Source: a virus
Lineage: Duplodnaviria > Caudoviricetes
Length of the DNA stretch: 63,279 bases
Direction: 5' to 3' (one strand)
IMG/VR virus record: IMGVR_UViG_3300046004_002250
Span: 1 to 63,279 of that record
Position 1 is the first letter of the stretch. The number at the start of each line of letters is the position of its first letter. The position numbers and the translations under genes are program-made. Shown piece after piece: positions 3,609 through 62,368 of this stretch. A model generated the notes under the pieces. The model had not been told where the DNA came from, did not search any database, and saw only the letters and a program-made list of their open reading frames with translations.

Positions 3609-3646
3609 TCCTGCGGCTGAATCTCACACACGAAAAAACACACATC

Positions 3647-4363: not shown

Positions 4364-4404
4364 TCAACCTCAACCGAACAGACACACTTTAACGACACAA
4401 AATT

Positions 4405-10848: not shown

Positions 10849-11094
10849 ATGAAAAACAAACTTCTCCTGCGGACAGTGGCTGTTCTAATGTTGGTGGTGG
10901 GACTGCTAAGCGGATGCAGTATGGGCAAGCTGAATGACTGGACACTGCGCGAGGGCAACCTTTCGCTGATGGATCTGCTGCGAATCGGCACAGACAGCGT
11001 GGCTGCCGCTGAAATCATCAAGGACGATGTGCGCCGGACACAGGCTGCCAATAGGTCGGCCAAAGCGGTGAAGAATGTAACGGTCAGTAAATAG
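10849..11094 (+). CDS. Lipoprotein (spanin-like candidate)
   Basis: Signal peptide with LLSG-C lipobox, in the lysis-like cluster. Confidence 0.6.
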   Translation: MKNKLLLRTVAVLMLVVGLLSGCSMGKLNDWTLREGNLSLMDLLRIGTDSVAAAEIIKDDVRRTQAANRSAKAVKNVTVSK

Positions 11095-30543: not shown

Positions 30544-31332
30544 ATGTCTCATATCATGAGTGATGAGGCAGGCCATAGTGAGGATGTGGCAGATCAGGCG
30601 CAGGAGGACTTGGAAAGTATCCGGCGTCAGGATTTGCAGAACATCCGTGCCTTTGCGAGAGCCGGGCGGCCTTTGACTGCGGAGCAGTTGCGGAGACTTG
30701 AGGCGGCGGACAGGGGGCAGGGTTCTTTGAATCTGGAGACGAGTGCTGCGGGCCAGCCGGTGTATGTGGCAAATCAGTCCATGCTGGCAGAGGCGCTAAA
30801 TCTGGCGGACCGGAAAACGATCCAGCGTTGGTTGCGCAAGGAAGGTGCGCCGCAGGCGACTGATGACGGGCGCTATGATGTGACGGCGTGGCGGGCTTGG
30901 ATGCTGACCAATGGGCTTGGCAGCAGGCGCAAGGAGCATGATCTGGAATCACTCAAGAAGGAACATGCGACGCTGGACCTGCGGACGAAGCAGATCGAGC
31001 TGGATGAACTGGAAGGACGCAGCGCGCCGATTGATGATGTGGTGCGGATTGTGGTGGAGCAGTATGCGCGGATGGTGCAGGGCTTTCGATCCATGCGGCA
31101 CTCACTGGCACCAGCGGTGGTTGGGGAAACGGTGCCGGAGGCGAGCAAGCGCATTGCGGCGGCGGTTGACGAGGTGCTTGGGCAATTTGCGATTCCTGAG
31201 AGCGCAAAAAAAAAAGTGTTTTGGAGGAACGCATCTACGAAGCTTGCAAGCCGCCTACCAGTGTTGCTCCACACGATTATGCCAGAGCCCACTTCCGTTT
31301 GCACAACGGAGACCGATGGGACCCTGACCTGA
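30544..31332 (+). CDS. terS: Terminase small subunit (Nu1-like)
   Basis: HTH (NQSMLAEAL...RKTIQRW..EGAP...GRYDV) plus coiled coil; upstream of terL. Confidence 0.8.
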   Translation: MSHIMSDEAGHSEDVADQAQEDLESIRRQDLQNIRAFARAGRPLTAEQLRRLEAADRGQGSLNLETSAAGQPVYVANQSMLAEALNLADRKTIQRWLRKEGAPQATDDGRYDVTAWRAWMLTNGLGSRRKEHDLESLKKEHATLDLRTKQIELDELEGRSAPIDDVVRIVVEQYARMVQGFRSMRHSLAPAVVGETVPEASKRIAAAVDEVLGQFAIPESAKKKVFWRNASTKLASRLPVLLHTIMPEPTSVCTTETDGTLT

Positions 31333-32996
31333 GATTTCAGGAAAAGATCATGCGGGATTTTGCCGATCCGGCGATCCGCAAGCAGGCCTGCCAGTGCAGT
31401 GCGCAGAGCACGAAGACGGTGCTGATGTATGGCTGCATGGGTTATGCGTTTTTGGAAGATCCGGGCCCGTTTCTTTGGGTGACGAAGTCGCTGCCGGAAG
31501 CGAAGAAGATGGCGGAAGCCTACTTGTGGCCGTTCTGGGAGAACACGCCAAAGCTGATGGAGAAGCTGCCGACGCAGCGAGACAAGAAACGGAAACTGTC
31601 GGCAAACTTTGGCGGGTTTTATTTCAACATCACGGGGGCTGATGCGGCGGCATCATTGCAGTCGCTGCCTTACCGATACTTATTTTTGGACGAGGTGCGG
31701 CAATGGCGTGCGGGGGCGCTGGAGCAGGCGAGCAAGCGGACGCGGTCGTATCCGCATAACTACAAGCAGTTCATGGTCTCCTGTCCGGACATGGAGGAGG
31801 ATATGATGGATCGAGCGTTTCTGGCCGGCAGTCAGGAACACTGGCATGTGCCATGCAGGAGTTGTGGCCACATGCAGGTGCTTGACTGGGGTGAGAAGAA
31901 AAAACCGGGCGGGGTGAAGTGGGATGACAATGAGATCACGCACCCGAACGGTGTGTGGAATCTGGACGAGGCCACGAAGTCATTGCGCTTTGAGTGTGAG
32001 TCCTGCGGGCATGAGCACCGCGACATCCGGCCATCAGGTGCAGACCGGAAATGGTTTTGTCGTGAAGGTGAATGGGTGGCTTACAATCCTGATGCACCGG
32101 CGGACTACAAGAGCTACACATGGAATGCGCTGCTGCCGCACTTCACCAGTTGGGCGGATCAGTTTCATGAGTTTCTGCGGGCAACGCAGGCGTTGAAGTC
32201 GGGCGACATCATGCCGCTCAAGGATCATTGGAATGAAACCCGCGGCAAGGTGTGGGCTGACCGGATGCGCTTTGCCAAGGACGATGAGTTCTTGAAGGAG
32301 CGTGAGCATCATTACCTGCCGGGCGATGTCTGGGAGAATGAAGTGCGGCGGTTCATGACGATCGACGTTCAGGGCAAGGGCGGACGCCACTATTGGGTGG
32401 TGATTCGTGCCTGGGGACAGTTCGGCCAATCCCGCAAGCTGCATCATGAAAAGGTTTACACGCGGGAGGATCTGATGCGGTTGCAAAAAGAGTGGGGTGT
32501 TGACCCGCGCAATGTGGCGATCGACTCGGCCTACTCGACGGCGGAGATTTACAAGCTGGTCATGGAGAGTGGCGGGCTGTGGAAAGCCATTCGTGGGGAG
32601 GAGAAACAATTCTTCACGCAGGATCACGGAGTCAAGGCGATCTGGGCCATGTCGAAGTTTGACCCGGCCATGGGCACGCGGTTGCAGGGACAGGTGGCGG
32701 CGATGCCGTTGTGGCTGTTCTCAGCACCGGCGACGAGGGAGCGGTTGGTGATGATGATGTATGGTGATCTGGGCGACTGGAGGCTGCCGCTGAATGAGGA
32801 TCATGAATACAAGCGGCAGGTGACAGCTTGGGAGCGCAAGCTGGTGCAGGGCGGACGGGGTGGTGCCAGCTACGTCTGGTATCAAAAGCGGGTCGATGAC
32901 CATCTGGAAGCCTGTGAGCGTATGCAGATTGCATGCGCGGCGATCTGTGGGCTTTTTGAGGCGGCAGATGGCAGTGCGCAGTTGCCACTGCTCTGA
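31221..32996 (+). CDS. terL: Terminase large subunit, GpA family
   Basis: SAQSTKT Walker A, LFLDEV Walker B, CxxC motifs, TIDVQ and DHLEAC nuclease motifs; start uncertain. Confidence 0.93.
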   Translation: MEERIYEACKPPTSVAPHDYARAHFRLHNGDRWDPDLRFQEKIMRDFADPAIRKQACQCSAQSTKTVLMYGCMGYAFLEDPGPFLWVTKSLPEAKKMAEAYLWPFWENTPKLMEKLPTQRDKKRKLSANFGGFYFNITGADAAASLQSLPYRYLFLDEVRQWRAGALEQASKRTRSYPHNYKQFMVSCPDMEEDMMDRAFLAGSQEHWHVPCRSCGHMQVLDWGEKKKPGGVKWDDNEITHPNGVWNLDEATKSLRFECESCGHEHRDIRPSGADRKWFCREGEWVAYNPDAPADYKSYTWNALLPHFTSWADQFHEFLRATQALKSGDIMPLKDHWNETRGKVWADRMRFAKDDEFLKEREHHYLPGDVWENEVRRFMTIDVQGKGGRHYWVVIRAWGQFGQSRKLHHEKVYTREDLMRLQKEWGVDPRNVAIDSAYSTAEIYKLVMESGGLWKAIRGEEKQFFTQDHGVKAIWAMSKFDPAMGTRLQGQVAAMPLWLFSAPATRERLVMMMYGDLGDWRLPLNEDHEYKRQVTAWERKLVQGGRGGASYVWYQKRVDDHLEACERMQIACAAICGLFEAADGSAQLPLL

Positions 32997-33011
32997 CCAG
33001 ACCAGACCTAG

Positions 33012-33320
33012 TTTACTCGTAATCGAGTAAAAACGGTGTTTTCTATAAAAATGGGAAAACTGTGCACACCTTGCTGGAAATTGGCAGACCTTGCAAAAAA
33101 GGAGTGTGCCGCGTGGAACGGTTGAGTTCGTGGCGAGGAACAGTGTTTCATCATACCTTACATACCTTGCATACCTTTTTGAAGATGGGGTAAGGGAAGA
33201 CGCATTAAAAATCGTCGTTTATGTGTATAAGGGATACCCCCCTCTGAGGTGTGCAGGTGTGCAAAAAAGTGCTAGAAGCCTTTTGTCGTGGGCGTTCCAC
33301 GCTGCATGCTTACCTTTTGG
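33012..33320. repeat. Non-coding iteron-like array (origin or packaging site candidate)
   Basis: CANACCTT at 33065, 33085, 33152, 33161 and 33170; inverted AGGTGTG at 33247 and 33255; palindrome at 33012-33031. Confidence 0.6.
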
Positions 33321-33370
33321 CTTGATAACTCCGTTGTTTGGAAGGCTTTAAGCCTGTGGAACGCCTGATT

Positions 33371-33694
33371 TTACGAGGCTTTTGCCAATCTGCGCACCCC
33401 TGGCCTGATGAGCAGAGGTGTGCAGCGCGGTGGGGTTGCGGGTGTTTTTTCCTGCGTAACGATCTGAATTTGAGGGATGTAGGAGCGGTAATCGAGGTAT
33501 GCAGAGCATTCGCTGCGGGCGTGTCCGGTTTGAATGGACCGGACGTGTTTGCAGGTGCGTTGGCCGTCTGCGGTGGTGCGCCTTGTCCAGCCGGGGCAGT
33601 TGCAGGTGATGAGACCGGTATCTAAAACAAGGGTCTCATAGGTGCTTTTGCTGCTGCTGCTGGCAAAGCGGTAAAGCTCATTGATGGTGCTCAT
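33371..33694 (-). CDS. SWIM zinc-finger protein
   Basis: SSSKSTYE...TCNCPGW...CKH. Confidence 0.8.
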   Translation of the reverse strand: MSTINELYRFASSSSKSTYETLVLDTGLITCNCPGWTRRTTADGQRTCKHVRSIQTGHARSECSAYLDYRSYIPQIQIVTQEKTPATPPRCTPLLIRPGVRRLAKAS

Positions 33695-33714
33695 GTTGAT
33701 AGGGCGTTAGTGAG

Positions 33715-34224
33715 ATGCAGACAAAATTAATGGAGATGAGCCAAAGGTTAGATTCGGCGCTGAACGAGTTTTACTATCCGAACATGCCGGCCTTGGCTGC
33801 GGCAGTGAAAATGAAGGGGTCTGGCATTGGCCGCCGTAAGTGGCAGAAAGTGTTCAGAGATGCCCGCAAAGAGCATCCTAAACCGGCGGAATGGTTGACC
33901 GATCCCTCAGTGAAGAGTTTCCGTGGCAAGGTGTTTAAGGCGCCTGTGGCGACTCCGCACGATACGTTCAAGGAACAATATCGGACACATGCCTACCCGT
34001 TGCTCGAAATCCAAAAGCGTTATGGCACAGGTGAAGGCCATGCGAAAGTGGCACGCACGATGGGGTTCACCACGAATCGGCAGGGCTTCGTCTCTCGCGG
34101 AGAGGCACAGCAACGGGCATGGAAAAAAGGGATTCGGATTGATGATCCGGAAGCACCGTGGAGGAAGAAATCTTGGAAAGGTCTTCACTCATCTGACATG
34201 CGTGGTCACTATGGCCCGCCGTGA
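33715..34224 (+). CDS. Antisense cargo cassette 1 (basic protein with conserved leader)
   Basis: TTGAT-N14-ATG; MQTKLMEMSQRLDSALNEF leader; GFTTNRQGFVSR.EA motif. Confidence 0.8.
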   Translation: MQTKLMEMSQRLDSALNEFYYPNMPALAAAVKMKGSGIGRRKWQKVFRDARKEHPKPAEWLTDPSVKSFRGKVFKAPVATPHDTFKEQYRTHAYPLLEIQKRYGTGEGHAKVARTMGFTTNRQGFVSRGEAQQRAWKKGIRIDDPEAPWRKKSWKGLHSSDMRGHYGPP

Positions 34225-34465
34225 TCCATCCGTGAAGATAGGGGGCATAAGCGGGCACATCAAGTGGGGCGCCTGATGCTTTCACAAAGTCCGCTGGGGA
34301 CATGCTTTTGACGCATTTGTGAGTATCGTAATCAAAAAGTTTAACGCTATCATCTTTGTAGAAGAAGCGTGCGGCGTATTCTTGCCCATTTACGGTGACA
34401 TGATCTGAGGTGTTAGATATATGCCACAAGGAGCGGAGAGCATCGGGTGAGTAAGATTGAAGCAT
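34067..34465 (-). CDS. Hypothetical protein
   Basis: Lower-GC ORF whose 3' end overlaps cassette 1. Confidence 0.45.
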   Translation of the reverse strand: MLQSYSPDALRSLWHISNTSDHVTVNGQEYAARFFYKDDSVKLFDYDTHKCVKSMSPADFVKASGAPLDVPAYAPYLHGWITAGHSDHACQMSEDLSKISSSTVLPDHQSESLFSMPVAVPLRERRSPADSW

Positions 34466-34500
34466 GGGTTAAGATAAGAGGCTGGAATAACGGTTCAAGC

Positions 34501-34719
34501 TCATGATTTGTTGGCTGGGACGCCTTCGCGGATTTTCTTTTCAAAGATGCAATGTTCACCGTCAGTGCGAATCCAGCGGTAGCCGTTTTTGAGCAGGTTG
34601 CTGAGTTCGGTGGAGTGTGCATCTGCGGACAGGTAAACACTTTTTGGCACTGGCACGGCGAGCATGGGATTGACGATGTGCAACGGCATTGTGGCGTAGT
34701 GATACAGATCGGAAATCAT
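34501..34719 (-). CDS. Hypothetical protein
   Basis: Coupled to the ParB gene. Confidence 0.5.
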   Translation of the reverse strand: MISDLYHYATMPLHIVNPMLAVPVPKSVYLSADAHSTELSNLLKNGYRWIRTDGEHCIFEKKIREGVPANKS

Positions 34720-36320
34720 TTGGGTTGGAGGGTGATGGGGTCGAGGTGTTTGAGGGAGCCGGGGAGTTTGCTGCCGGTGGCGGCGCGGACGTAGGCGGCG
34801 GGGAGGTCAAACTTGGTGAGGGTTGAGATGTGGGTCATTTCAGCGATGAAGGCGGGGCTGGCGATGTCGCTCTGGCGCTCGGTGTGGGCGCGGTCACGGA
34901 GACGGCGGATGATGACGTTGCAGACGCTGTCCCAAAGCGCGTCAATCGTGGTTTTAAGGTCTTGGTTCTGGAGTTGGTGAAACTCATCCCAGGTCTTGGG
35001 ATTGACGCTGTTGGCGTTGGAGTCGGTGCCAAAGCTGGTGGCGAGTATGAGCAGGGAATCGGTGCCTAATCCAAGGTGGCCAAACTTACAGGCATCAAGG
35101 TGCAGGCGCAGGTCATCGAGGACGAGGCTGTAGCGTTTACCTTGCAGGCGGGTGATGCTGGCGTGGATGGCTTCGGCGGGATCTTTGATGCCGTCTTGGC
35201 TGGAGGGTTTGGGGAGAGGTTTGCTGTTGGGGCCAGTGGGTTCTGGGGCAATTTTCCAAGTGAGTTTGACTTTACCGTTTTCTTCCTCAAGGAAGGGTTC
35301 GGCTACGGGGTCTGATTTCTTGGAAGTTTTCCAGTTATGGAAGTTCCATTGGTTCCGAAGTTTGAGAGTGGACCCATCTGCCAGCGTGACGGGATCGGGA
35401 TCGTAGGATGCAGAGATGGCGTAGTAGCCTTTGGGGGCTTTGGCGATGGCGGCCTGCCACTCGGCGTCACGGGCGAGGTTTTTGCGTTTATTGAAGCAGG
35501 CAGGGTTGAGGCATTGGGCGCACTTGGTCACTTTGGCATCAGCAAACTCGGTGTTGCTGAACAGATCGCTGGCGACGCTGCTGGTGGCGCAACCGCTGGG
35601 GCCGCAGCCTTCGATGAAGGTGGCGGGGTTATCGAGCCATTTGGCGTCTTTGAGTGAGCAACTGAGACTAGACAGCCATGAAACGACTTCGGAATGGCTG
35701 GGGCTTTCATAGCCATCTACGACCCACTCGCTGTGGAAATGCTCCTGCAGTTCGGGACTCAGGGCGGCGACGAGTTCCATGGTGGCGATGGGCAGGTTGT
35801 GGATGCTGCTTTCGGGGTCTTGCCAGGCGGTGTGGATGCTGTCGGTGAGGGCGCAGAGGCGCATCCGGCGTTTGACCCATGAGTCGGGCCGGCCAAGCAT
35901 GGCGGCGATGGATTCCGGGGTGCTGCCGGGCAGTTCAGTGAGTCGGCGGATCTGAGCGGCTTCCTCGCGTGGTTCGGGGTTTTCACGCTGCAAGTTTTCG
36001 ATGGCGAGCATGGCTTCAATTTCGGCATCAGAGAGATCACGGACGATGCAGTCGAGGGAGAGCCCGGCGAGTTTGGCGGCGTGCCAGCGGCGGGCTCCAG
36101 CGCCGAGTTGGTAGCGGTCGGGCTTGGTGGGATGCGGGCGGACGGTGACGGGCTGGATCTGGCCGTGGCTGCGCATGGAGTCGGCAAGGCCGCGGCAGGA
36201 CTCAGGTGTGATCTGCCGGTTGTGCGGATGGGGATCGATGGATTTAGTGGCGATCCATTGGCGAGTGCCGTCGGTGATGGTGGTTTGGGCGGTGGGTTTT
36301 GGGGTGGGTTTGGTTTTCAT
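34716..36320 (-). CDS. ParB/Spo0J-family protein
   Basis: LADSMRSHGQIQPVTVR, GARRWHAA, ENLQREN, HTH, Cys cluster. Confidence 0.88.
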   Translation of the reverse strand: MKTKPTPKPTAQTTITDGTRQWIATKSIDPHPHNRQITPESCRGLADSMRSHGQIQPVTVRPHPTKPDRYQLGAGARRWHAAKLAGLSLDCIVRDLSDAEIEAMLAIENLQRENPEPREEAAQIRRLTELPGSTPESIAAMLGRPDSWVKRRMRLCALTDSIHTAWQDPESSIHNLPIATMELVAALSPELQEHFHSEWVVDGYESPSHSEVVSWLSSLSCSLKDAKWLDNPATFIEGCGPSGCATSSVASDLFSNTEFADAKVTKCAQCLNPACFNKRKNLARDAEWQAAIAKAPKGYYAISASYDPDPVTLADGSTLKLRNQWNFHNWKTSKKSDPVAEPFLEEENGKVKLTWKIAPEPTGPNSKPLPKPSSQDGIKDPAEAIHASITRLQGKRYSLVLDDLRLHLDACKFGHLGLGTDSLLILATSFGTDSNANSVNPKTWDEFHQLQNQDLKTTIDALWDSVCNVIIRRLRDRAHTERQSDIASPAFIAEMTHISTLTKFDLPAAYVRAATGSKLPGSLKHLDPITLQPK

Positions 36321-36340
36321 GTTGATACGTGGGTGGTGGT

Positions 36341-36466
36341 ATGAATCGAGATTTGACGCGATTGAATCGCAGACTGGATGCGGCGCTGACTCAGTTTGGA
36401 GTCACTGAGTTTGCCAAGATGTCGAAGGACACTTTTAAGGCGGTCTGGCGGCGTTCGCGGTTGTGA
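36341..36466 (+). CDS. Antisense cargo cassette 2 (41-aa micro-ORF, possibly a remnant)
   Basis: Translated by hand as MNRDLTRLNRRLDAALTQFGVTEFAKMSKDTFKAVWRRSRL*; TTGAT-N14-ATG at 36322. Confidence 0.7.
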   Translation: MNRDLTRLNRRLDAALTQFGVTEFAKMSKDTFKAVWRRSRL

Positions 36467-36515
36467 TCCAAGCGTGGGTCATCAAAGAGAGTTGGATCGA
36501 GGTAGGGTGTTGAGA

Positions 36516-36902
36516 TCATCGTGATTTGCAAAAAAACGGGCGGTCGAAGGGGTCATCGAAATAGATGTTTTCCGCGCCACGGGAGGTTTCAAAAATGAGG
36601 CAATCGCGCTGGAGGGCGATCATGTCGTCGCGCTCCAATTCACGCGGGCCGGAACGTGGCAGATGCTGCAAGCCAACAATGCCCTGGGAGATTTCCAGCA
36701 CACAGCGTGCGCCGCTGGCTTTGGGTTTGCCGGTGCTGTTGCCGTGGATCATGCTGGCGTGCGCGGCTTGCAGCAAGACGCCGGTGCAGTCATGGATCTG
36801 CTTGCCTTGGATCAAGCGGACGGTGAGACCGCTTTTGAGGTTAGCTTTGCAGTAGTAAATCGTGATTGGTTCTTTGGGTGTGGCGCGGAGGAGGTGTGTC
36901 AT
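36516..36902 (-). CDS. Hypothetical protein
   Basis: Coupled minus-strand ORF. Confidence 0.6.
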   Translation of the reverse strand: MTHLLRATPKEPITIYYCKANLKSGLTVRLIQGKQIHDCTGVLLQAAHASMIHGNSTGKPKASGARCVLEISQGIVGLQHLPRSGPRELERDDMIALQRDCLIFETSRGAENIYFDDPFDRPFFCKSR

Positions 36903-37168
36903 GGTGAGTTGCGGTTTGGGTTGGGGATGGAAAAAAGGGCGTCGTAGGGGCCGTGGCTGTCTTTGCGGCGTTCAGCCCAGACGATGAGAACACGGGGCTT
37001 CATGTGCTCTGGCACGGGTGTGCCGGGGATCTTGCCGGGTTTGTATTTGCCGCGGTCAAAGCGCTCTTTGGGCAAGCTGGCCAAGCTGTGACCTTGAACG
37101 GGGTTGAACAGGGAATCGCGCAAGGCAGCGGTGAACTGTCGCTTGGTGAGGATGGTGTCGTATTTCAT
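36899..37168 (-). CDS. Hypothetical protein
   Basis: MKYDTIL start; ATGA overlaps. Confidence 0.55.
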   Translation of the reverse strand: MKYDTILTKRQFTAALRDSLFNPVQGHSLASLPKERFDRGKYKPGKIPGTPVPEHMKPRVLIVWAERRKDSHGPYDALFSIPNPNRNSP

Positions 37169-37371
37169 GGTTGGCAGTGGAATTTCCAGATTGAATCTTC
37201 TTTGCCGGAGGTGATGCAGAGGTAGCGGGCGACGAGGGTTGTGTTGCCTGCGATCGTGTAGCCAAAGACGCAAAATTGTCCGGCGAAGAAGCGGCCGTCT
37301 GGGCCGGTGGAGACGATGAGTTCAGGTGACTTGCTCATCTCGGACATGGTCATGGTTTCGGTTAGAATCAT
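37165..37371 (-). CDS. Hypothetical protein
   Basis: MILTET start; coupled ORF. Confidence 0.4.
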   Translation of the reverse strand: MILTETMTMSEMSKSPELIVSTGPDGRFFAGQFCVFGYTIAGNTTLVARYLCITSGKEDSIWKFHCQP

Positions 37372-37375
37372 GGGA

Positions 37376-38194
37376 TTAGGCGGCGAAATCGAAGTCGAGT
37401 TGGCCGCGGTTGGCGGTGATGCGGGCCTCGCGTTCGGCGGTGGTGGCGGCGATGGCGGCGGCGATTTTTTGTAGTTCAGCGGTGGCGGTGCGGGCGGCGT
37501 CTTCGGCGCGTTCGACGGCGGTGCGGCGGTAGGGGTGGAGGACGCCAACGAGGGTGGTTTCGTTGCGGTGTTCTTCCAGACTCAGGCTGTTGCCCCAGAT
37601 CACATTGGCGGGCACACCGCAGAGGGTGAGTTGGATGTAGGTGGCCATGAACATCTTGGGGTCAACGTCCACGGCGGTGAGCCAGTAGTGCCAGGGCATG
37701 AAGCCTTTTTCATGGAGCACGTTGGTGGTGGCGATGGCCATCGCTCCGGCACCGCAGGCGGGCTCGCAGATGGTGAGGCGGCGGTCGGGATCGGGTTGTT
37801 GCTCGCCCATCGTCATGCGGGCCATCAGGTCGCAGACGTGTTTTGGGGTGAAGAATTGGCCGTTCCATGAGGAGAGCAGTTCAAGTTCGCTAGCGACACA
37901 GCCGAGGAAATCATAGCGTTCGCGGTCGAGGCCCATGACGAGGTGGGCCATGGCCTCGCGAAACTTGGCGGGGTATTTGTAGCGGGCTTCGATCGAGAGA
38001 AATTCTTTTTCCTTTTCGGTATTCATCTCGCCGGTTTGGAATTTGCAGACGGCTTGCGACAAGCTCAGGTAGGCGAGGTTGAGGAAGTCGCTGAACGTCT
38101 CCCACATGGAGCGCGATCCGAAGGAGGTCTCTTCCAGGCAGGTGGCAAAGGTGTGGTGGTGTTTGTGGGAAAAGTGAGATGATTTCATGGGCAT
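37376..38194 (-). CDS. N6-adenine DNA methylase-like protein (SAM-binding half only)
   Basis: GQFFTP, EPACGAG, AVDVD, GNSLS; no NPPY/F motif seen. Confidence 0.8.
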   Translation of the reverse strand: MPMKSSHFSHKHHHTFATCLEETSFGSRSMWETFSDFLNLAYLSLSQAVCKFQTGEMNTEKEKEFLSIEARYKYPAKFREAMAHLVMGLDRERYDFLGCVASELELLSSWNGQFFTPKHVCDLMARMTMGEQQPDPDRRLTICEPACGAGAMAIATTNVLHEKGFMPWHYWLTAVDVDPKMFMATYIQLTLCGVPANVIWGNSLSLEEHRNETTLVGVLHPYRRTAVERAEDAARTATAELQKIAAAIAATTAEREARITANRGQLDFDFAA

Positions 38195-38217
38195 AAAAAA
38201 ACCGCCGGATGGCGGTT
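38195..38217 (-). terminator. Rho-independent terminator
   Basis: AACCGCC-ATCC-GGCGGTTTTTT on the minus strand. Confidence 0.7.
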
Positions 38218-38308
38218 GGTGGGTGGAGGATGTTGGTGGGATGATTAGAAGGCGGGAAGGGCCATGCGTGCCGGCTGTTCATGCAGGTGCCACATGAAAT
38301 GCTCAACA

Positions 38309-38602
38309 TCAGCGCCAGTCCACTGGCTGGCTGGTTTGGGTGTCTGATTTGAAACGGTTCGGCTCATCTTCGGTGATCTCACAGACCAAATGCTCAGGCA
38401 CTCCATAGAGCACATTGCAGGTGGTCAGCGAGTTGCGCCATGTTGCGCGCTCCACAGTTGCGAGGCCGTTTCCATTCGTGGTCACTTTCACGGACTCGCC
38501 CGTCGAGAAGTTGCAATATGTTCCAGCCAGCGGAGACGCAAGCCGAACAAATCGGATGCAGGCAACGGCTCTAGGAGTCGGTGGAGTATTCATAGCTTTC
38601 AT
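38309..38602 (-). CDS. Hypothetical protein
   Basis: Coupled ORF. Confidence 0.45.
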   Translation of the reverse strand: MKAMNTPPTPRAVACIRFVRLASPLAGTYCNFSTGESVKVTTNGNGLATVERATWRNSLTTCNVLYGVPEHLVCEITEDEPNRFKSDTQTSQPVDWR

Positions 38603-39042
38603 TTCGCCGTCGCCTGATCCGAAGCGTTCTCTAGCGGGTGTGTCTCAAGAGCGGCCATCGCTGATTCCCACGCTTCGCGAATGCGGCGGCAGTCGCCATT
38701 TGTGACCTGGATTTCCACGTCCATATCCCAATCTTCAAAATCAGGCTGATGCTGTTCGCCAATGAGTCGTGTGACGTTCACGCATTTGATGAGCGCGGCA
38801 CGCATGTCGTCCACGGCTCTTTCGGCTTTGCGTGCTCGCATCTTCCATACGCTTGCCATGTTGATTTCGAGTATGCGGTCTTGAGTGGCGTGACTGTTGA
38901 GGATTCGCGCGCACCAGCCGGTGTAGCGTTCGAGAGCTTCTAAGCTGGGTTCAGCATCGAAAGTCACGCTCACGGTGTCGTTGACTTGATCTTGATGCCG
39001 CAGTGTGGCTTTGACTTCGAGTTGGGATTTACCTTTGGGCAT
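38599..39042 (-). CDS. Hypothetical protein
   Basis: Coupled ORF. Confidence 0.6.
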   Translation of the reverse strand: MPKGKSQLEVKATLRHQDQVNDTVSVTFDAEPSLEALERYTGWCARILNSHATQDRILEINMASVWKMRARKAERAVDDMRAALIKCVNVTRLIGEQHQPDFEDWDMDVEIQVTNGDCRRIREAWESAMAALETHPLENASDQATAK

Positions 39043-39290
39043 CAGGGTTGGGGGTCGAGGATGTCTTCGAGGTAGCGGTGGATGGCGCCGGGAGTGGTGA
39101 AGGTGTCGATGATGTCTTCGGGGATGGTGAGCTTGTAATGGTCTTCGACGGCGAGGATCACATCGAGCATGTCGGTGGGATCAGCGCCGAGATCGGTGAA
39201 GAGGGCTTCACGGGTGAGGTCGGTGAGGTCGATGCCGGTGTGGTCGAGTTGGTTGAGCAGGAGTTGTTGCAGGCCGGAGAAGTGAATCAT
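39042..39290 (-). CDS. Acyl-carrier-protein-like protein lacking the Ppant serine
   Basis: FTDLGADPTDMLDVILAVEDHYKLTIPE vs canonical DLGADSLD..ELVMALEEEF..EIPD. Confidence 0.8.
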   Translation of the reverse strand: MIHFSGLQQLLLNQLDHTGIDLTDLTREALFTDLGADPTDMLDVILAVEDHYKLTIPEDIIDTFTTPGAIHRYLEDILDPQP

Positions 39291-39325
39291 GAGAGTTGAG
39301 GGTTTGAGTTCGGTCAGGTGTCACC

Positions 39326-40465
39326 TTATTCAGTGATGCGCATGGGCATGAGCACGGTCTGGCGGCCGTCTGGCTGGCCGCCAAGCATGGGGCTATTGGA
39401 ATCACGCAGGCGAAGATAGGTGCCGCTGAAATCCAGACAGGGCAGGAGCAGGAAGGTGTCGAAAGCAATGTTGAAGGGTTCACTGGTGCCTTTCCATGTG
39501 CCTGCGGGGAAGGGCTCACAAAGAACGGACGGGGTGCCGGAACTGGTTTTGACCGCGGCGGTGACGCTATGGTCGGCGTGCAGATGGAAGGTGGTGGTGG
39601 TTTCAGCGCGGGTGCTGCGCTGGTGGAAGAGCAGAGTTTCGCGAGTGGTGTCGGTGAGGGTGACGAAGGTGGTCATGTCCTCGCTTTTAGGGATGACCTG
39701 GGCGTAGTTGGGATAGGTCCCATCGATGAGGGTGTGCTTGAGCAGGCAGTTGTCGAAAGGTTGGGCGAGGATGGTGCAGCGTGCAAAATCATCATTTGCA
39801 ATGTTCATGGGCTTTGAGAGCCAGAAGGGAATGGGTTTGTCGTCTTCCGGCAGGAGGGGGCTGGTGAGGCATTTCAGGGCACGAGGAGGTATGATGAAGC
39901 TGGCAGGCAGGGTAGTGCCGGGTGCGGGTGGGGTGAAGCCGAGATAGCGGCCATTGGTGGCGACAGTGGTGCCGTTTGGAGCAAAGAAGACGCCATTGAG
40001 GACGTAACGGGTCTCATCTGTGGACATGAAGGCGCTGGAGGCGATGGCATCATGCAGGGTTTTGGGATTGAGCCAGCCGCCGAGATTGAAGCCGGTGGTA
40101 TCAAAAGGCGGGAACTGGTCATGATCGATGCGTGCCTGCGGGCATAGGGAGGCGGTGCCGGTGCTGGTGAAGGCGCGCATGTGGTGATTGAGCTGGCAGA
40201 ACTCAATCCAGCCATCCTTGGGAAGGCTGCGGGTGATGGCGAGAAACCATTCAATGCTGCAGGAGGTGGGTTCAGTGAGGCTGGTGGGCTCGGGGAGTTG
40301 CAGGGGCCAGTGGAACTGGTTTTCCAGATCGCTGGAGGCGAGGACGATGCGGGTCTCGTTGATGGGGTGAATGTGCAGGTGGGTGAGCACGGGCAGTTTC
40401 ACTTTGGAATTGATTGAGGTGAGCAGGGCGCGGAGACGGCGGAGGGTGGGGGTGGTGAGTTTCAT
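39326..40465 (-). CDS. dnaN: DNA polymerase III beta-clamp-like protein
   Basis: LPVL, SDLE, STDETRYVLNGV, VATNG, LIDGTYPNYAQVIP, VLMPMR. Confidence 0.85.
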   Translation of the reverse strand: MKLTTPTLRRLRALLTSINSKVKLPVLTHLHIHPINETRIVLASSDLENQFHWPLQLPEPTSLTEPTSCSIEWFLAITRSLPKDGWIEFCQLNHHMRAFTSTGTASLCPQARIDHDQFPPFDTTGFNLGGWLNPKTLHDAIASSAFMSTDETRYVLNGVFFAPNGTTVATNGRYLGFTPPAPGTTLPASFIIPPRALKCLTSPLLPEDDKPIPFWLSKPMNIANDDFARCTILAQPFDNCLLKHTLIDGTYPNYAQVIPKSEDMTTFVTLTDTTRETLLFHQRSTRAETTTTFHLHADHSVTAAVKTSSGTPSVLCEPFPAGTWKGTSEPFNIAFDTFLLLPCLDFSGTYLRLRDSNSPMLGGQPDGRQTVLMPMRITE

Positions 40466-40489
40466 GGGAGTTGATGAGGGTTGGGTGTT

Positions 40490-41035
40490 ATGTTATTACA
40501 GAGACTGACGCTGCTTGAGGAGAGATTGGATGGTGCTTTGACGCTGTTGTGGACGCGGGAGATTGATGACAAAAAATATGCGGACGGAATGCGGACTGAT
40601 AAGTTCCGGTTGAAGGATGGGTCACTGATCAGCGTGGAGCGTGACGAGCCGCGGGCAAAAACCCGCTACTACAAGGTGGAAGATCCCGGTGGTGCTCATG
40701 TGAGGTATTCCACCCATCAGGGAAAGAATAAAAAGCGCATGAAGGTGGACTGGCTTGTCCACGATAAAAACATGAACGGGATGCCTACCCGCGGGCAGGT
40801 GGCATCCGTTCAGAGGGCAACGCGAAAGGTGATTGGTCGCGCTGACAAGATGAGAATGACTGCTTACACAGATCCAGTGCCCTTTGGGCGGATGCCGGTT
40901 GAGTCACTGGTCAAAATGTATGGCCGGGATAGATTCAAAGGCATCAAGACCGGAGGTGATCTTTCAGCGTCGTTTCGCCGGAAGGACAAGTGGGGTGCTC
41001 TGGGGGCTTTGGTGCGCAAGCCGAAGCTGCGCTGA
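40490..41035 (+). CDS. Antisense cargo cassette 3
   Basis: TTGAT-N14-ATG at 40471; MLLQRLTLLEERLDGALTLL leader; LVKMY...F resembles a GNAT C-terminal motif (weak). Confidence 0.75.
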   Translation: MLLQRLTLLEERLDGALTLLWTREIDDKKYADGMRTDKFRLKDGSLISVERDEPRAKTRYYKVEDPGGAHVRYSTHQGKNKKRMKVDWLVHDKNMNGMPTRGQVASVQRATRKVIGRADKMRMTAYTDPVPFGRMPVESLVKMYGRDRFKGIKTGGDLSASFRRKDKWGALGALVRKPKLR

Positions 41036-41366
41036 CATACAAGGTCTGAGGAGGTGATGGGAAATAATGGAGGAAGGCCGGACAAAGCCAGAAGGTGAGA
41101 CCTTCCTTGAGATGCTCTTTGTCGAGGTAAACAAACCCGCCCATGTCCTTGCGGACAAAGCTGTAATTCAGCGCGGATGGGAAGGGCTGGCTGGATGCGA
41201 GCAGTAAAAAATCACGCTGCGGGGACAAGCCAAAATGCAGTGCCAGATGGGCAAGAGCGGTGTTGGCGGCAAGGACAAAGGGTTCATCGACCAGCCCGTG
41301 ATGCGGATCACTGAAAACATAGATGCTGCCTTTGGGCCTGACGTGGAGAGTGTGGATGGTGTTCAT
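40944..41366 (-). CDS. Hypothetical protein (DUF6717-like)
   Basis: VFSD...GLVDEPFV...WLCPAFLHYF..PP..LYV. Confidence 0.65.
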   Translation of the reverse strand: MNTIHTLHVRPKGSIYVFSDPHHGLVDEPFVLAANTALAHLALHFGLSPQRDFLLLASSQPFPSALNYSFVRKDMGGFVYLDKEHLKEGLTFWLCPAFLHYFPSPPQTLYVSAASACAPKPPEHPTCPSGETTLKDHLRS

Positions 41367-41477
41367 CGATAAGAGTAGTGGCTGAATTTGTGGTAGGAGC
41401 GGACGACGATAACGGCGGCAGTGATGATGGCGATGAGTAAAAGCCAGAGGGCGGTGGTGAGGGTGCGGTGGAGCATC

Positions 41478-41819
41478 TCAGTTGTGGTGGAGGTATTGGT
41501 CGGGGAAGTGACTGGTGACGTTGGTGATCTGGTGGGCTTTGAGCAGACCGAGAACAAATTCCTGGGTGAACTCGTCCCAGCTCATGAGGGTGGCGGGGAC
41601 AAACATGATGCAGTAGCCATTGTCGGCGGGATTGGGAAATCCGGTGAAATACTGGGCGACGAGGTGGCCGGTGGTGCCGGACAGGGAGAAGTCGCGGTGA
41701 TAGTAGGTGCAGGCATTTTGGCCGGGCTGGATGCGGCGCTCGAAATCGCCAAGGATGCCGGCTTGCAGGAGGATGTGGCGGCAGAGTGCGTCTTCCTGAC
41801 AGATGATGATGTCGGACAT
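41478..41819 (-). CDS. Hypothetical protein
   Basis: ORF preceded by a TTCATC-repeat leader. Confidence 0.55.
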   Translation of the reverse strand: MSDIIICQEDALCRHILLQAGILGDFERRIQPGQNACTYYHRDFSLSGTTGHLVAQYFTGFPNPADNGYCIMFVPATLMSWDEFTQEFVLGLLKAHQITNVTSHFPDQYLHHN

Positions 41820-46410: not shown

Positions 46411-46960
46411 GGTTTTCGGAATGGAAGAGGGCGATTTCTTCATCTTCTTCGGGTTCGGTTTTGGGTGGCTGGAGATCCCGGAAGCCAGTGAGGCGGAACT
46501 CGTCAAACCATGTGGCGTGGCAGTCATGACAATCGACCATCTGGTCGGCAGTCATGCCGTCCGGTTCCAGGGCGCTGGCTTGGATGGCGGTGCTGCCGCA
46601 GTGCGGGCAGGTGGTGCCGCCATCTTCCAGATACTGCTGTTGAGGGTTGGGCTGGTGGGCACCTTCATGCGGGCAGATGATCCAATGCCAGACGGGGTGA
46701 TCGTGCGGCAGGTTGCGGCGGAGCAGGGTGAACAGAGGAAACGCTGGGTCAGTGACATCAGGCCGGAGGTCGAGGATCTCATGACCTTCAAGTATGTTGC
46801 CTAAAAGATGGCAGAGATGGGCGGCGGTATCGCCGGTGATCTGCCACTTGAGACTTGTCCAGACGTGCTTGGCCACGGCGGCGCGGGAGGCGTCACCAAG
46901 GGCGGCGCTGATCGTTTTGGCGCTGGCGATGAGGTCAGTGTTGAGGGCGGGTTGGGACAT
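46400..46960 (-). CDS. Zn-ribbon protein
   Basis: CPHCGS...CHDCHATW. Confidence 0.65.
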   Translation of the reverse strand: MSQPALNTDLIASAKTISAALGDASRAAVAKHVWTSLKWQITGDTAAHLCHLLGNILEGHEILDLRPDVTDPAFPLFTLLRRNLPHDHPVWHWIICPHEGAHQPNPQQQYLEDGGTTCPHCGSTAIQASALEPDGMTADQMVDCHDCHATWFDEFRLTGFRDLQPPKTEPEEDEEIALFHSENHED

Positions 46961-47003
46961 GGGGAAAGGATGAAGGGTGAAGGATGAAGGATGAAGGTGA
47001 AGG

Positions 47004-48092
47004 TTAGGCGGCTTTGAGTTTGAGCTGGGAGATGTGGCACTCCTGTGGCGAGACATCGTCACGGGGGCCGAGATAGACGGGCTGGAAGACGCAGCCATCA
47101 GGGAAGGCGTAGAGGTAGCGCACCTCGACAATGGAGTCGGCGGGCGGGATGCTGTGATTGGGTGGGATGGTCACATTGCCAAAGCCACGGACGCGGCCCT
47201 GATTCTCGTAGAGGATGAGTTCTACGCTGCGCTTGCCTGTGCTGGTGCTGCCGACGATGAAGCTGGCGGTCTCCGTGAACTTGAACTTGAGGGCAGGGCC
47301 GCCAGTGCTGGGGCGTGAGCTTTGCCACGGAGCATTCAGGTCTTTGAAGACGATGCCTTCGGCGTTGTCGGCGCGGAGTTGGTCGAGTAGGTCTTGCTTG
47401 CTTGCAAGAGTGGTCTCACTATCGACGCATTGCAGGTGGATGAAGTATTCATCATTGACGTAAAGCAGACGCCGGAGCATGTCATGGCGTTCGGCATAAG
47501 AGCGGTGCCGGACATCGATATTGTCCTGACTGAGCAGGTCAAAGGCCATGAAGGTGTCACCCACCATTTCACCGTCGATCACACAAAGGTGGAGTAGATC
47601 AAGCATGGCGCGCTGGACGGTAGCCGGGAAACCACAGGGCAGGCCGCGCTTATTGACGGCAGTCACGACGCCTCTGCCGCCTTGGCTGGTGAGGGTGAGC
47701 GTCATGCGTTTGCCGTCGTGCTTCTGCTGGGCGCAGTAGCGCCCATCACGCAGCAGGCGGTCAAGCTCTGCTTCGGTGATGCTGTTGAGCAGCATGGGCA
47801 GGGTGGGGTCGGCTGCGGGCGCGGTGCTGACGGTGGGGGCCACGGCGGGCGCGGTCTGGCCATCGGTGGCGATGACGTAACCGCCTGCCTGCTTGCTGCG
47901 GATGAGTTTGGTGGCGATGTCTCCGGCCACTTCATGGCGGACGGGTTCGGGCGTCTTGGTGCCGGTGGTCAGGGTGCTGCCACGGCGGCCGTAAGCAAAG
48001 GTGACGATGCTGGTGGTGGCCGTGATGGGGTCGATCGTGACTTGATAGACCTTGTCACTGCCAGCTTGGCGGTTGTAAAGGGTGGTGGTCAT
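47004..48092 (-). CDS. WGR domain + ATP-dependent DNA ligase-like protein
   Basis: SDKVY, YGRRG, KHDGKR, IDGE, AFDLL, EGIVFK, LKFKF, VEVRY. Confidence 0.88.
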   Translation of the reverse strand: MTTTLYNRQAGSDKVYQVTIDPITATTSIVTFAYGRRGSTLTTGTKTPEPVRHEVAGDIATKLIRSKQAGGYVIATDGQTAPAVAPTVSTAPAADPTLPMLLNSITEAELDRLLRDGRYCAQQKHDGKRMTLTLTSQGGRGVVTAVNKRGLPCGFPATVQRAMLDLLHLCVIDGEMVGDTFMAFDLLSQDNIDVRHRSYAERHDMLRRLLYVNDEYFIHLQCVDSETTLASKQDLLDQLRADNAEGIVFKDLNAPWQSSRPSTGGPALKFKFTETASFIVGSTSTGKRSVELILYENQGRVRGFGNVTIPPNHSIPPADSIVEVRYLYAFPDGCVFQPVYLGPRDDVSPQECHISQLKLKAA

Positions 48093-48100: not shown

Positions 48101-48289
48101 TTAAGCGTTGGCGTTTTGGTAGGTGGTGGCGGAGGTCTGAGCGTGGAACTCAGGTTTCTTTTTGACGGACTGGACGGTGCCGAGTGCGGCCTCGATCTGG
48201 GCGGTGGTGCTCTGGCAGGACTTGCCTTTGAAGCCGCTGGTCTCCACGGAGGTGGCACCGTTGTGCAGGGTGATGGTGATGGTTTTCAC
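48101..48289 (-). CDS. DUF2997-like protein
   Basis: VETSGFKGKSC...T..IEAALG....KKPEF. Confidence 0.85.
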   Translation of the reverse strand: MKTITITLHNGATSVETSGFKGKSCQSTTAQIEAALGTVQSVKKKPEFHAQTSATTYQNANA

Positions 48290-48324
48290 AGAAAGGATAA
48301 AGGGTGAAGGATGAAGGATGAAGG

Positions 48325-48780
48325 TTAGGCGGCGCAGGTGATCTGGATGGCCCCGTTGGGCAGGGTTTTGCGGACGGGCTGGTATCCTTTCTGCCGAAGC
48401 ATGGCCATGGCGGTGTGGGCACCGTAGGTATCCTGCAGGCGGACGAGGTTGTCCCCGAAGCGCTCTTTGAGCTTCATGCCGTCATGGCGCAGGTTTTTGC
48501 CCGTGCCGAAGAAGTCCCAGGCGAGGGTGTAACTGCCGGCGGTGGTCTTGCTGGCGACGACGCCGATCTCGTAATGCACGCCGGGCAGGCGGATGACGTG
48601 ATCACACTTGCCAAGGTCGGCCAGGGTCATGCCCTCTGGCAGAGGTTCATCGCCCACTTTGGCGCCATACCAGTTGTAGGTGGGGACGTTGCGGTGGAGG
48701 GACGCGCCGAGTTCGGCGCAGGCAGCTTCGAGGGTGGCGAGGTCTTTGATGACCAGTTTGATGGTGGTGATGTGGGACAT
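48325..48780 (-). CDS. DUF1257/Ycf35-like protein
   Basis: MSHITTIK..IKDL..L.AAC.ELG, YEIGV, WDFF. Confidence 0.8.
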   Translation of the reverse strand: MSHITTIKLVIKDLATLEAACAELGASLHRNVPTYNWYGAKVGDEPLPEGMTLADLGKCDHVIRLPGVHYEIGVVASKTTAGSYTLAWDFFGTGKNLRHDGMKLKERFGDNLVRLQDTYGAHTAMAMLRQKGYQPVRKTLPNGAIQITCAA

Positions 48781-53875: not shown

Positions 53876-54118
53876 TTAGCGTCCGTGTTCCTGCTGCGCT
53901 GCGAGCCAGGTGGCGATTTCCAGAAAGTAACTGGCGCTGGGCTGGACTTTCCCGCTGGCAAAGTTGCTGACACTGACTCTGGCACCTGGTAATGTGAGGC
54001 CGCGCTGGTGAACGAGATGGCGGGCCAAGGCGCTCTTGCTGCCATGGTGCCGGTTGAGGTGATCGTTCAGCTCGGTGAGCCAGACATCGTAGTTGGCGGG
54101 CAGGGTGATGGTTTTCAC
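53876..54118 (-). CDS. Cro-like HTH protein
   Basis: HGSKSALARHL...VSNFASGKVQPSA. Confidence 0.6.
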   Translation of the reverse strand: MKTITLPANYDVWLTELNDHLNRHHGSKSALARHLVHQRGLTLPGARVSVSNFASGKVQPSASYFLEIATWLAAQQEHGR

Positions 54119-54194
54119 GGAAAGGATGAAGGTGGAAGGATGAAGGATGAAGAGGTGAACTGCAAGCGGGATTGGTGACAGGCCAAGTTTGCTG

Positions 54195-55042: not shown

Positions 55043-55332
55043 TGCCGATCCAGGAACTCACGACTGAGGAGCAGGCCGCACGGGGCGTGCGCAGCTTCCT
55101 GCTGCAAGGGCAGATGACGCGCTGCCGCGTGGAGATGCAGTGGCAGGAGGAGGTGGACTATTCCGGTGCGCCGGAGTGGCGGGCACTGCCAGCGCCGGGC
55201 AATCGGGTGGTGATGGAAGAGCTGCTGGCGCTGCTGGCGGATTTGCGGCCGGTGATGATGGGGAGCCGTTTGGCCGTTTGGCCGGTTGACGCGGGTGGCG
55301 TGGCATGGGAAAGCCAACACTCAACCTGTTAG
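55042..55332 (+). CDS. Hypothetical protein
   Basis: TGATG coupling. Confidence 0.45.
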   Translation: MPIQELTTEEQAARGVRSFLLQGQMTRCRVEMQWQEEVDYSGAPEWRALPAPGNRVVMEELLALLADLRPVMMGSRLAVWPVDAGGVAWESQHSTC

Positions 55333-61480: not shown

Positions 61481-61518
61481 TTGACAACTTCACCCAAACT
61501 GACAGACACACTTTTTCC

Positions 61519-62328
61519 ATGAAAACACGCCAACTCATTCAACTCTCCTCCCGTCTCAACGGGGCACTCAACCAATTTGCCCTGGCAGCCAATGCCACCG
61601 GGGAATACCCATGGCAGCAGCAGCAGCGTGAAAAGCGCAACCGCCGTGTCGGTGGTGGGATTGTCGCTGCGGGCGTGCTGGGTGGTGCCGGTTATGCCGG
61701 ACATCGCAGCGTGATGCAACGCGGTGCTGCCGCTGGTCCGGTGCGCGCCGGTGATGCCTACAAAGCCGTGGGCAATGAGGCGCTGGACAAGGTGAAGACG
61801 GCTGGCGCTGCCGGTGCGGCCCGTGCGGCGACCTACGGCAAGAACGTCAAGGGTGCTTATCAGGGTGCGCGTGCTGGCACTGCGGGCCTGGGTTGGAAGA
61901 AACCCGGCATGGGTGTGGGTAAGGCGGCTCTGGCAGCCCTGAAAGGCGTGCGCTTTGGTGCGGCGCAGCGTTTGGTGGAACTCGAAGCGCAGTTGGATGA
62001 CGTGCTGGTGGAGTTTGGTTCCACTATGAAGCATTTGGTGGGTGACGATGAGCGCAAGAAAAAAGCTGCGCGGATCGGTGCCGGGGCAATAGCTGTCGGT
62101 GGGGGTGCTTTTGTAGGTGACCACGCCATCATGAGCGCGGCCAAGAAGAAATACGGATTCACTCCGACCCGCGCCAATGCTTACGGCGATGCCGTCACCA
62201 GTGGCATGCAGGCAGGAAAGCGCGGTCTTAAAAAAGGCATGGCTCAAGCATCTTATCATGCCGAGCCAGCCCTGCGCAAAATCAAGGGTGCGCTCGGTCT
62301 GCGTAAAGTCGCGGGCAGGCTCAAGTAA
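61519..62328 (+). CDS. Allele of 451-1242
   Basis: Same leaders; divergent segment after LVEF. Confidence 0.85.
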   Translation: MKTRQLIQLSSRLNGALNQFALAANATGEYPWQQQQREKRNRRVGGGIVAAGVLGGAGYAGHRSVMQRGAAAGPVRAGDAYKAVGNEALDKVKTAGAAGAARAATYGKNVKGAYQGARAGTAGLGWKKPGMGVGKAALAALKGVRFGAAQRLVELEAQLDDVLVEFGSTMKHLVGDDERKKKAARIGAGAIAVGGGAFVGDHAIMSAAKKKYGFTPTRANAYGDAVTSGMQAGKRGLKKGMAQASYHAEPALRKIKGALGLRKVAGRLK

Positions 62329-62368
62329 GGTTCATCCTCCATCCTTCATCCTTCCTCCTTCCTCCCTC

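Follow-up and report, generated by a model that had tools for sequence, protein, structure and literature searches.

What are three plus-strand genes doing inside a block of genes that otherwise lies on the opposite strand? We addressed this question in a DNA stretch of 63,279 bp, hereafter the window, which is the whole of IMG/VR virus record IMGVR_UViG_3300046004_002250 and a single contig of an uncultured tailed phage. Minus-strand genes occupy 33.4-54.8 kb of it and include a ParB-like gene, a sliding-clamp-like gene and a DUF6717 gene. Among them lie three plus-strand open reading frames (ORFs) starting at 33715, 36341 and 40490, which we call cassettes 1, 2 and 3. An earlier note on this DNA had taken them for self-contained morons, each made of a late signal, a targeting tag of about 19 residues and a variable payload, that would add injected effectors such as anti-defence proteins. 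We can say with high confidence that these are real genes with a shared signal, a shared tag and swappable payloads. The best reading of the system is a tag-and-cargo organisation in an unrelated, uncultured phage lineage, which would resemble the internal proteins (Ip) and capsid targeting sequence (CTS) of phage T4. Whether the full model holds, in which tagged proteins are loaded into the capsid, appears to us an evenly balanced matter.

The three ORFs are real accessory genes. They could have been chance open frames antisense to the early operon of a G+C-rich genome, and many spurious ORFs do occur on both strands of the region. We trained a codon model on the plus-strand genes and compared its score per codon between frame 0 and the shifted frames. 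In frame 0, cassettes 1, 2 and 3 scored -4.07, -4.13 and -4.03, against -4.24 to -4.67 in the shifted frames. Between cassette 3 and its ortholog in the related sequence L001, the ratio of nonsynonymous to synonymous divergence (dN/dS) was 0.14, at a synonymous divergence (dS) of about 1.0. Together with the homolog families and the motif statistics given below, these results refute chance open frames, an explanation that retains next to no probability.

Cassette 1 (33715-34224, plus strand) encodes 169 residues, namely a helix at residues 1-20 (nt 33715-33774) and a basic payload with an isoelectric point (pI) of 10.3. Two homologs were found, with 62% and 57% identity, and all three members of this family, including cassette 1, carry the tag. 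Cassette 3 (40490-41035, plus strand) encodes 181 residues, with the helix at residues 1-21 followed by a basic payload (pI 10.4). Only two relatives of it were found among 5.8 billion proteins, P0005 (96% identity) and P0001 (80%). Meanwhile, cassette 2 (36341-36466, plus strand) encodes just 41 residues, which comprise the helix tag and 18 residues of a 225-aa family before a premature stop. It matches P0030 and P0006 through the residues FKAVWR and then ends, and the leader of P0030 is identical. This family has 10 full-length members of 221-304 aa, eight of which have a recognisable tag. Judged by these alignments, cassette 2 is a truncated remnant of a 225-aa gene.

The cassettes sit tightly between their neighbours. 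The ATG codons of cassettes 1 and 2 each lie 20 nt, and that of cassette 3 lies 24 nt, from the CAT of a divergent minus-strand gene, exactly the range of 20-24 bp claimed before. At their other ends, cassette 1 is overlapped over 158 nt (34067-34224) by its convergent neighbour, and the last 92 nt of cassette 3 (40944-41035) overlap the tail of the convergent DUF6717 gene (40944-41366, minus strand). Within these 92 nt conservation is seen in the frame of cassette 3 but not in the tail of the DUF6717 gene, and L001 has an overlap of equal length, which indicates an old arrangement. The earlier claim that convergent neighbours run into cassettes 1 and 3 was borne out by both overlaps, but its suggestion of a lost stop does not hold as a recent event at cassette 3, where the overlap is conserved in the relative G005 (L001/L006; terminase 92% identical).

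What the cassettes have in common begins upstream of their start codons. The pattern TTGAT-N14-ATG, reported in the earlier note, was found on the plus strand at 33696, 36322 and 40471, immediately 5' of the three cassettes. It has five matches in the window, of which three are the cassettes, with 2.0 expected and 7 of 100 shuffles reaching five. Its extended form GTTGAY-N14-ATG has 11 matches, every one of them on the plus strand and at an ORF start, with 1.17 expected and none of 100 shuffles reaching 11. The three cassettes carry the version GTTGAT, on the plus strand. At cassette 1 the hexamer (33695-33700) lies 14 nt before the ATG and abuts the CAT (33692-33694) of a divergent minus-strand gene (33371-33694). 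That of cassette 2 (36321-36326) abuts the CAT (36318-36320) of the ParB-like gene (34716-36320, minus strand), and that of cassette 3 (40470-40475) is 5 nt from the CAT (40463-40465) of the sliding-clamp-like gene (39326-40465, minus strand). All eight exact late-gene matches in the window have the version GTTGAC, with a G-rich spacer of 14 nt. Their hexamers start at 10829, 13692, 14166, 14643, 15322, 54780, 55285 and 57630 on the plus strand, upstream of late-block plus-strand ORFs starting at 10849, 13712, 14186, 14663, 15342, 54800, 55305 (the portal gene) and 57650. Variants with an N15 spacing occur 5' of 5460, 5' of 18216 and at an in-frame internal start at 2862.

The same pattern was found in the relatives G001, G003 and G005, with 11, 7 and 3 matches on the late strand, none on the opposite strand and none for a reversed control. 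Across three lineages, TTGAY-N14-ATG precedes all eight early-block cassettes. In G001, a complete relative, the distance from motif to ATG stays at 14 nt even though the divergent gene starts about 75 nt away, indicating that the motif belongs to the cassette. By itself, GTTGATR was not enriched in the window (13 occurrences against 13.8 expected). The enriched feature is the fixed spacing to the ATG only, and not the hexamer alone.

The motif could be a promoter or a translation-start signal. We favour a translation-linked role, since the G-rich spacer is Shine-Dalgarno-like (GGTG) and the motif stands before each of the consecutive, closely spaced late ORFs 13712, 14186, 14663 and 15342. 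Its description as a late motif needs some refinement. GTTGAY is indeed shared with the late plus-strand genes, but these have GTTGAC where the cassettes have GTTGAT, and gene 451 of the head region has a CA-rich upstream region instead. Genes 451, 3647 and the major capsid gene are all preceded by such G-poor, CA-rich regions (425-450, 3622-3646 and 4380-4404), not by GTTGAC, and AGACACACTTT is common to the upstream regions of gene 451 and the major capsid gene. Such regions may form a second start-region class, serving abundant head proteins.

Downstream of the ATG, all three cassettes begin with an amphipathic, charged helix of about 20 residues, with the consensus x-L-T-x-L-x-x-(R/Q)-L-D-x-A-L-x-(E/Q)-F. 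Hydrophobic positions 6, 9, 13, 17 and 20 are conserved, with a heptad-like 3-4-4-3 spacing. A six-frame search of the window with the regular expression RL[DN].AL..[FL] for its core returned five matches, all on the plus strand and all N-terminal, in genes 451, 61519, 33715, 36341 and 40490. A looser expression also found the internal helix of gene 451 (nt ~922). With a profile built from nine leaders, the members themselves scored 31-42 bits and the next best of 2506 six-frame segments scored 6 bits, while the internal helix of gene 61519, which was outside the input of the profile, scored 21 bits. Both the regular expression and the profile support the previous observation that the cassettes start with the same helix as gene 451. 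The leader is also conserved in homologs, as the idea in the earlier note required, and is kept in relatives whose capsid protein is only 64% identical. In these, L010 and L011, the homolog of gene 451 has both of its helices and the homolog of gene 1270 begins with one; in L007-L009 the 1270 homolog has an internal helix. The residue after the helix-final F/L is small in 13 of 18 aligned copies, and to take this for a cleavage site is speculation on our part.

Shared 5' ends of this kind might instead reflect an element acting at the nucleotide level, such as a translation enhancer, an RNA structure or a recombination site. The conserved GTTGAY-N14 lies directly upstream, and the leader of cassette 2 has a 30-nt DNA match to the L001-type leader of site 1, which yields an apparent joint of 33180 to 36349 in three sequencing runs. 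Against this, mean DNA column identity among the leaders is only 56%, synonymous sites vary while residues are kept, and the codons for R-L-D differ in nearly every copy. Moreover, copies of the helix lie inside genes, far from their starts, and the profile detects it at the protein level in distant relatives. We therefore disfavour a nucleotide-level element and consider it very improbable. The pattern of substitutions indicates that the helix is a module at the level of the protein.

Behind the helix, the payloads are unrelated in sequence. BLASTP similarity between non-orthologous cassettes is confined to residues 1 to ~20, in agreement with the claim that their downstream parts are unrelated. 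The payloads also differ between relatives at the same sites. L002 is 99.0% identical to the window up to 33695, and identity resumes at 34718. The variable segment between them (33696-34717, 1022 bp), which contains cassette 1 on the plus strand and the minus-strand ORFs 34067-34465 and 34501-34719, is replaced in L002 by 272 bp with one minus-strand ORF of 83 aa. The left breakpoint, at 33695/33696, is the first T of TTGAT. In G005 all three sites are occupied by cassettes: site 1 by a 134-aa protein that contains a DGHHR motif (P0002; L001 12903-13307, minus strand), site 2 by the full 225-aa gene, and site 3 by the ortholog of cassette 3, with 80% identity. G001 has a 116-aa cassette beside its homolog of 36516-36902 and, divergent from its clamp gene at site 3, a 451-aa cassette in place of the 181-aa cassette 3; both have unrelated payloads. 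In the metagenome contig X7, a spacer of just 11 nt connects 36321 with 36509, and this variant has no cassette 2. Site 2 is consequently found among relatives as a full-length gene, as a remnant and empty. The three antisense sites of the early block are exchange hot spots.

The comparison of presence and absence at these sites, proposed earlier, thus gave variants without cassette 1 (L002) and without cassette 2 (X7), and other payloads in G005 and G001. It upholds only part of the idea of self-contained morons. Cassettes 1 and 2 do come and go between relatives, but the site of cassette 3 is occupied in all three lineages examined (window, G005 and G001), and no sigma-70-type promoter or terminator stands out above shuffled sequences. 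The scan gave a single sigma-70-like site where 3.0 were expected, and 12 terminator-like sites where the expectation was 8.9, numbers that have to be read with the caveat that the promoter type of the host may differ, and none of these sites convincingly flanks a cassette.

The helix is not restricted to the cassettes. Gene 451 (451-1242, plus strand) encodes a basic, Gly/Ala/Lys-rich protein of the head region (pI 10.5) with two helices, at nt 451-513 and nt 889-948, and both are kept in its relatives. Gene 61519 (61519-62328, plus strand), located in the repeat that the contig ends share, is a second, diverged copy of gene 451 and also has both helices; DNA similarity between the two copies is lost for ~60-80 nt directly after helix 2. 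Gene 1270 (1270-2253, plus strand) encodes another basic head-region protein, whose N-terminus is a shortened helix and whose homologs have a full N-terminal or an internal one. The helix is found twice in each of these two basic protein families, which are encoded between the portal gene and the scaffold/capsid genes.

We searched 1.84 billion representative proteins with a profile of 18 helices (E<=0.001) and retrieved 21 proteins, most of them members of the 451 family. The search for diverse payloads behind the leader, which the earlier note had recommended, was therefore productive, with modules found stand-alone or fused behind helix 2. Proteins of the 451 family are built from an N-terminal helix, a conserved unit (GEYPW, basic, Gly-Ala-rich), a second helix and a variable tail. 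P0023, a stand-alone protein of 89 aa, combines the helix with the same tail that P0011 has after its helix 2. The tails of P0009 and P0024 have a match in P0025, and P0024 is itself a chimera of a 1270-type N-terminus with a 451-type second helix and tail. One of the 21, the 554-aa repeat protein P0027 (E 5e-4), was rejected as unrelated, its match consisting of four weak 8-bit stretches inside the repeat. These alignments indicate that payload modules move between stand-alone genes of helix plus payload and positions behind helix 2 of 451-family proteins, which makes the helix-coding stretch the junction of module exchange.

Because the helix is also present inside and at the C-terminal end of head-region proteins, we regard it as a repeated docking or junction module and not as an N-terminal leader only. 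Of the proposed structure, a leader of about 19 residues with a variable payload, the modular tag of ~20 residues stands, with cassette 2 being a remnant and the helix also having internal and C-terminal copies. The positions of these copies, together with the heptad-like spacing of positions 6, 9, 13, 17 and 20 and the basic nature of every bearer, would suit a coiled-coil-type assembly module that joins basic proteins (451, 1270 and the cassettes) and acts late inside the infected cell without being packaged, for example in DNA condensation, in packaging help or in binding of the host nucleoid or of RNA. We take this to be a possible, though not a probable, account. It fits less well with the location of genes 451 and 1270 between the portal and the scaffold/capsid genes, with the AGACACACTTT shared upstream by gene 451 and the major capsid gene, and with the virion-gene start signal carried by the cassettes. 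It and the loading model disagree only on where the proteins end up.

Strong basicity is common to the helix-bearing proteins: the 13 examined all have a pI within 10.0-11.6, and their net charge per 100 residues is +7 to +15. Among the remaining 38 proteins of the window the median pI is 6.25, and five reach 9.5, including a 1276-aa protein beside the portal. This protein is encoded directly after the portal gene (57650-61480, plus strand), has no family match, a net charge of +142 and a pI of 10.6, and is a candidate internal or ejected virion protein.

Searches for function in the payloads gave nothing significant in Pfam, PHROGs and NCBIfam, nor in sequence searches of the PDB. A match of P0006 to the kinase SRPK1 (E 0.006) was rejected as chance, as it was not reproduced with the family profile. 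P0002 weakly matches SbnI/SerK (E 0.035-0.9), in keeping with its DGHHR motif, and we treat this as a lead only. SbnI and SerK are presumably ParB/Srx-fold proteins, and P0002 may be a ParB/Srx-like payload behind the helix tag. Searches of the ESM Atlas provided two more results that serve as leads only: cassette 3 scores 0.91 to unnamed viral clusters, a minority of them GNAT, and cassette 1 reaches a template-modelling (TM) score of 0.45 to T4_Y16D models. The AlphaFold2 (AF2) model of cassette 3 was too poor to use, with a mean predicted local distance difference test (pLDDT) value of 46.8. A complex prediction that paired the leader alignment with the gene 2280 product and the capsid protein, run without controls, gave a score of 0.00, which carries no weight either way.

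A different destination for the tagged proteins would be the membrane or cell envelope, where they might act in an ejection or trans-envelope channel, in lysis or in superinfection exclusion, the helix then being a targeting element and not a device for loading soluble effectors. Members of the 451 family and P0007 have a basic stretch behind the helix and, after it, a hydrophobic segment rich in Gly/Ala, and the N-terminus of the 1276-aa neighbour has a weak, non-significant glycine-rich match. We find this unlikely. The helix is amphipathic and charged, and by reading the sequences, with transmembrane prediction not run, we noticed no hydrophobic segment in cassettes 1 and 3, P0002 and P0006. 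The proposal also overlaps with the loading model, in that ejection proteins are packaged first too.

Gene 2280 (2280-3608) looks like a protease-plus-scaffold gene and has a conserved internal in-frame start. Inside it, GTTGAC-N15-ATG (2841-2864) precedes an in-frame Met at residue 195, an arrangement conserved in 4 of 4 relatives, although the hexamer also encodes the conserved residues G-V-D. Initiation at residue 195 would yield a C-terminal, coiled-coil, scaffold-like protein of 248 aa. This layout recalls the nested protease and scaffold genes C/Nu3 of phage lambda.

Each cassette is composed of the start signal GTTGAT-N14(G-rich)-ATG, the helix of ~20 residues and an unrelated, strongly basic payload. 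In the loading model, the mechanism that we consider most likely, the helix would attach the protein that carries it to a shared partner while the head is being assembled. This partner would be the scaffold core or the 451 and 1270 proteins. The basic payloads would become enclosed together with the DNA and enter the next cell that is infected, like the internal proteins of T4 with their capsid targeting sequence. We also put forward a more specific and more tentative version, which as a whole is doubtful. In this plug-in cargo reading, repeated helices would assemble the 451 and 1270 proteins into an internal core associated with the DNA, and any basic protein that gained a helix would join this assembly and be delivered along with the genome. 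The DNA that encodes the helix would serve in recombination as well, as a handle for the hopping of payloads from stand-alone antisense genes to fusions behind helix 2 and back. A late transcript would run antisense through the early operon, and the GTTGAY-N14 start signal would select the cassettes for translation.

Several observations weigh against loading into the capsid. The 451 and 1270 proteins have no match in Pfam, PHROGs or NCBIfam, and their role in the head is deduced from gene position only. The prohead protease in gene 2280 was not confirmed, with no family match and an AF2 model of pLDDT 50.4 (~30 over its N-terminal half), and no payload has a recognisable function. The helix is also internal in 451-family proteins, and P0016, P0021 and P0022 end directly after helix 2; such placement suits a cleavable leader no better than it suits a helix-helix assembly module. 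GTTGAY is too near the ATG for a confident promoter call and may be a translation-start signal, in which case the plus-strand transcript through the early block would need a separate source. Late timing, capsid loading, cleavage, injection and any anti-defence role are what we infer from the arrangement as a whole.

The closest known counterpart is found in the T-even phages. The literature describes their internal proteins as unrelated to each other, with only an N-terminal leader in common that is cut off after loading into the prohead (PMC12373910, PMC3012670, PMC7697877). The Ip loci are hypervariable between related phages, the proteins are injected, and Ip1-3 block type IV restriction enzymes (PMC12373910, PMC3012670, PMC7697877); the T4 CTS is removed by the head protease (PMC7697877, PMC3012670). 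The window is similar in its unrelated payloads, shared tag, polymorphic loci and a start signal in common with late genes. Unlike these phages, however, it belongs to an unrelated lineage with a lambda-family portal and a genome of ~61 kb, and its tag has ~20 residues against ~10 in T4 (PMC7697877). Its helix is repeated inside and at the end of head-region proteins, and its cassettes lie in antisense orientation where genes of the replication block meet. What this system would add to the T4 scheme is the repetition of the helix, module exchange at the helix junction and the antisense position of the genes. We found no homology to the T4 Ip families, cassettes 1, 2 and 3 and genes 451 and 1270 being without a PHROG (E<=0.01) or Pfam match; the T4 leader was not aligned directly. 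PHROGs includes T4 proteins.

Phage P1 provides a second comparison. An N-terminal stretch of at most 30 residues of DarB suffices for capsid entry, the anti-restriction cargo is delivered with the DNA, and the authors found no N-terminal consensus among Dar proteins (PMC9024508). The likeness is an N-terminal signal on cargo, putative in the window; the difference is that the window has one clear consensus across at least eight payload types. Morons, autonomous accessory gene units in phage genomes, resemble cassettes 1 and 2, extra genes flanked by conserved ones that some close relatives have and others lack. The cassettes differ from morons in that no sigma-70-type promoter or terminator stands out and the late-gene start signal of the phage itself is used, and in the occupation of site 3 in every lineage examined. 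Finally, the cargo-loading peptides of encapsulins are short, conserved and found on diverse cargo, which they direct into an HK97-fold shell; such peptides mostly stand at the C-terminus, and what they bind is the shell protein of a compartment that is not viral. The window tag is likewise a short conserved peptide on diverse proteins, with a putative partner.

The remaining features of the window place this system in its genomic context. Positions 1-2174 are repeated at 61069-63276 with 86-88% identity, giving a genome unit of ~61 kb, which the window contains in full. Within the repeat lie gene 451, part of gene 1270 and the C-terminal end of the 1276-aa protein. The repeat could be a true diverged duplication, or else the genome is circularly permuted and two of its strain variants were fused in assembly. 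Plus-strand genes run from 55.3 kb across the contig end to 21.1 kb (virion genes) and from 29.5 to 33.0 kb (terminase). They include the lambda-family portal (55305-57026, plus strand; Pfam PF05136, E 1e-47), the major head protein (4405-5376; PHROG family 1005, phrog_1005, E 1e-33) and the large terminase (TerL; 31221-32996), which is ~25% identical to named phage terminases. The sequencing runs containing window DNA are labelled lake water metagenome; a listing of runs for 33000-41500 gave 24 DNA runs and no RNA run. A megablast search of 33000-41500 against the phage collection, a scan of IMG/VR with cassette 1 and a scan of metagenome contigs with TerL gave no match, and no prophage was found in a scan of genome contigs with the capsid protein.

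GC skew on the plus strand is strongly positive across the whole window, mostly 0.13-0.33 from 10 kb onward. As this includes the minus-strand block, minus-strand genes are C-rich and plus-strand genes are G-rich. A purine-rich repeat (GGAAAGGATGAAGG.TGAAGGATGAAGGATGAAGG, plus strand) occurs in three intergenic places of the early block (46955-47015, 48270-48335 and 54098-54158), and may have an early regulatory function. G001 has a similar run, of the GGATGAAGG type, in the interval from the clamp gene to its cassette. A 71-nt direct repeat with 98.6% identity (6369-6439 and 6549-6619) falls within the 798-aa ORF 6027-8423. No tRNA genes were found.

As far as the literature was searched, a consensus leader on unrelated cargo has so far been described in T-even phages. 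The cassettes are a clear case of module shuffling at a defined protein-coding junction, linked to an unusual start signal at fixed distance, GTTGAY-N14-ATG. If tagged proteins are indeed loaded, tag-and-load delivery of variable proteins would have arisen more than once, and the tag would provide a simple sequence rule for recognising candidate injected proteins, possibly with counter-defence roles, in uncultured phages, as well as a new short tag for loading foreign proteins into capsids. Should the plug-in cargo reading prove true, a phage with a lambda-type portal would hold a second system of the T4 Ip/CTS kind, of independent origin and with greater modularity.

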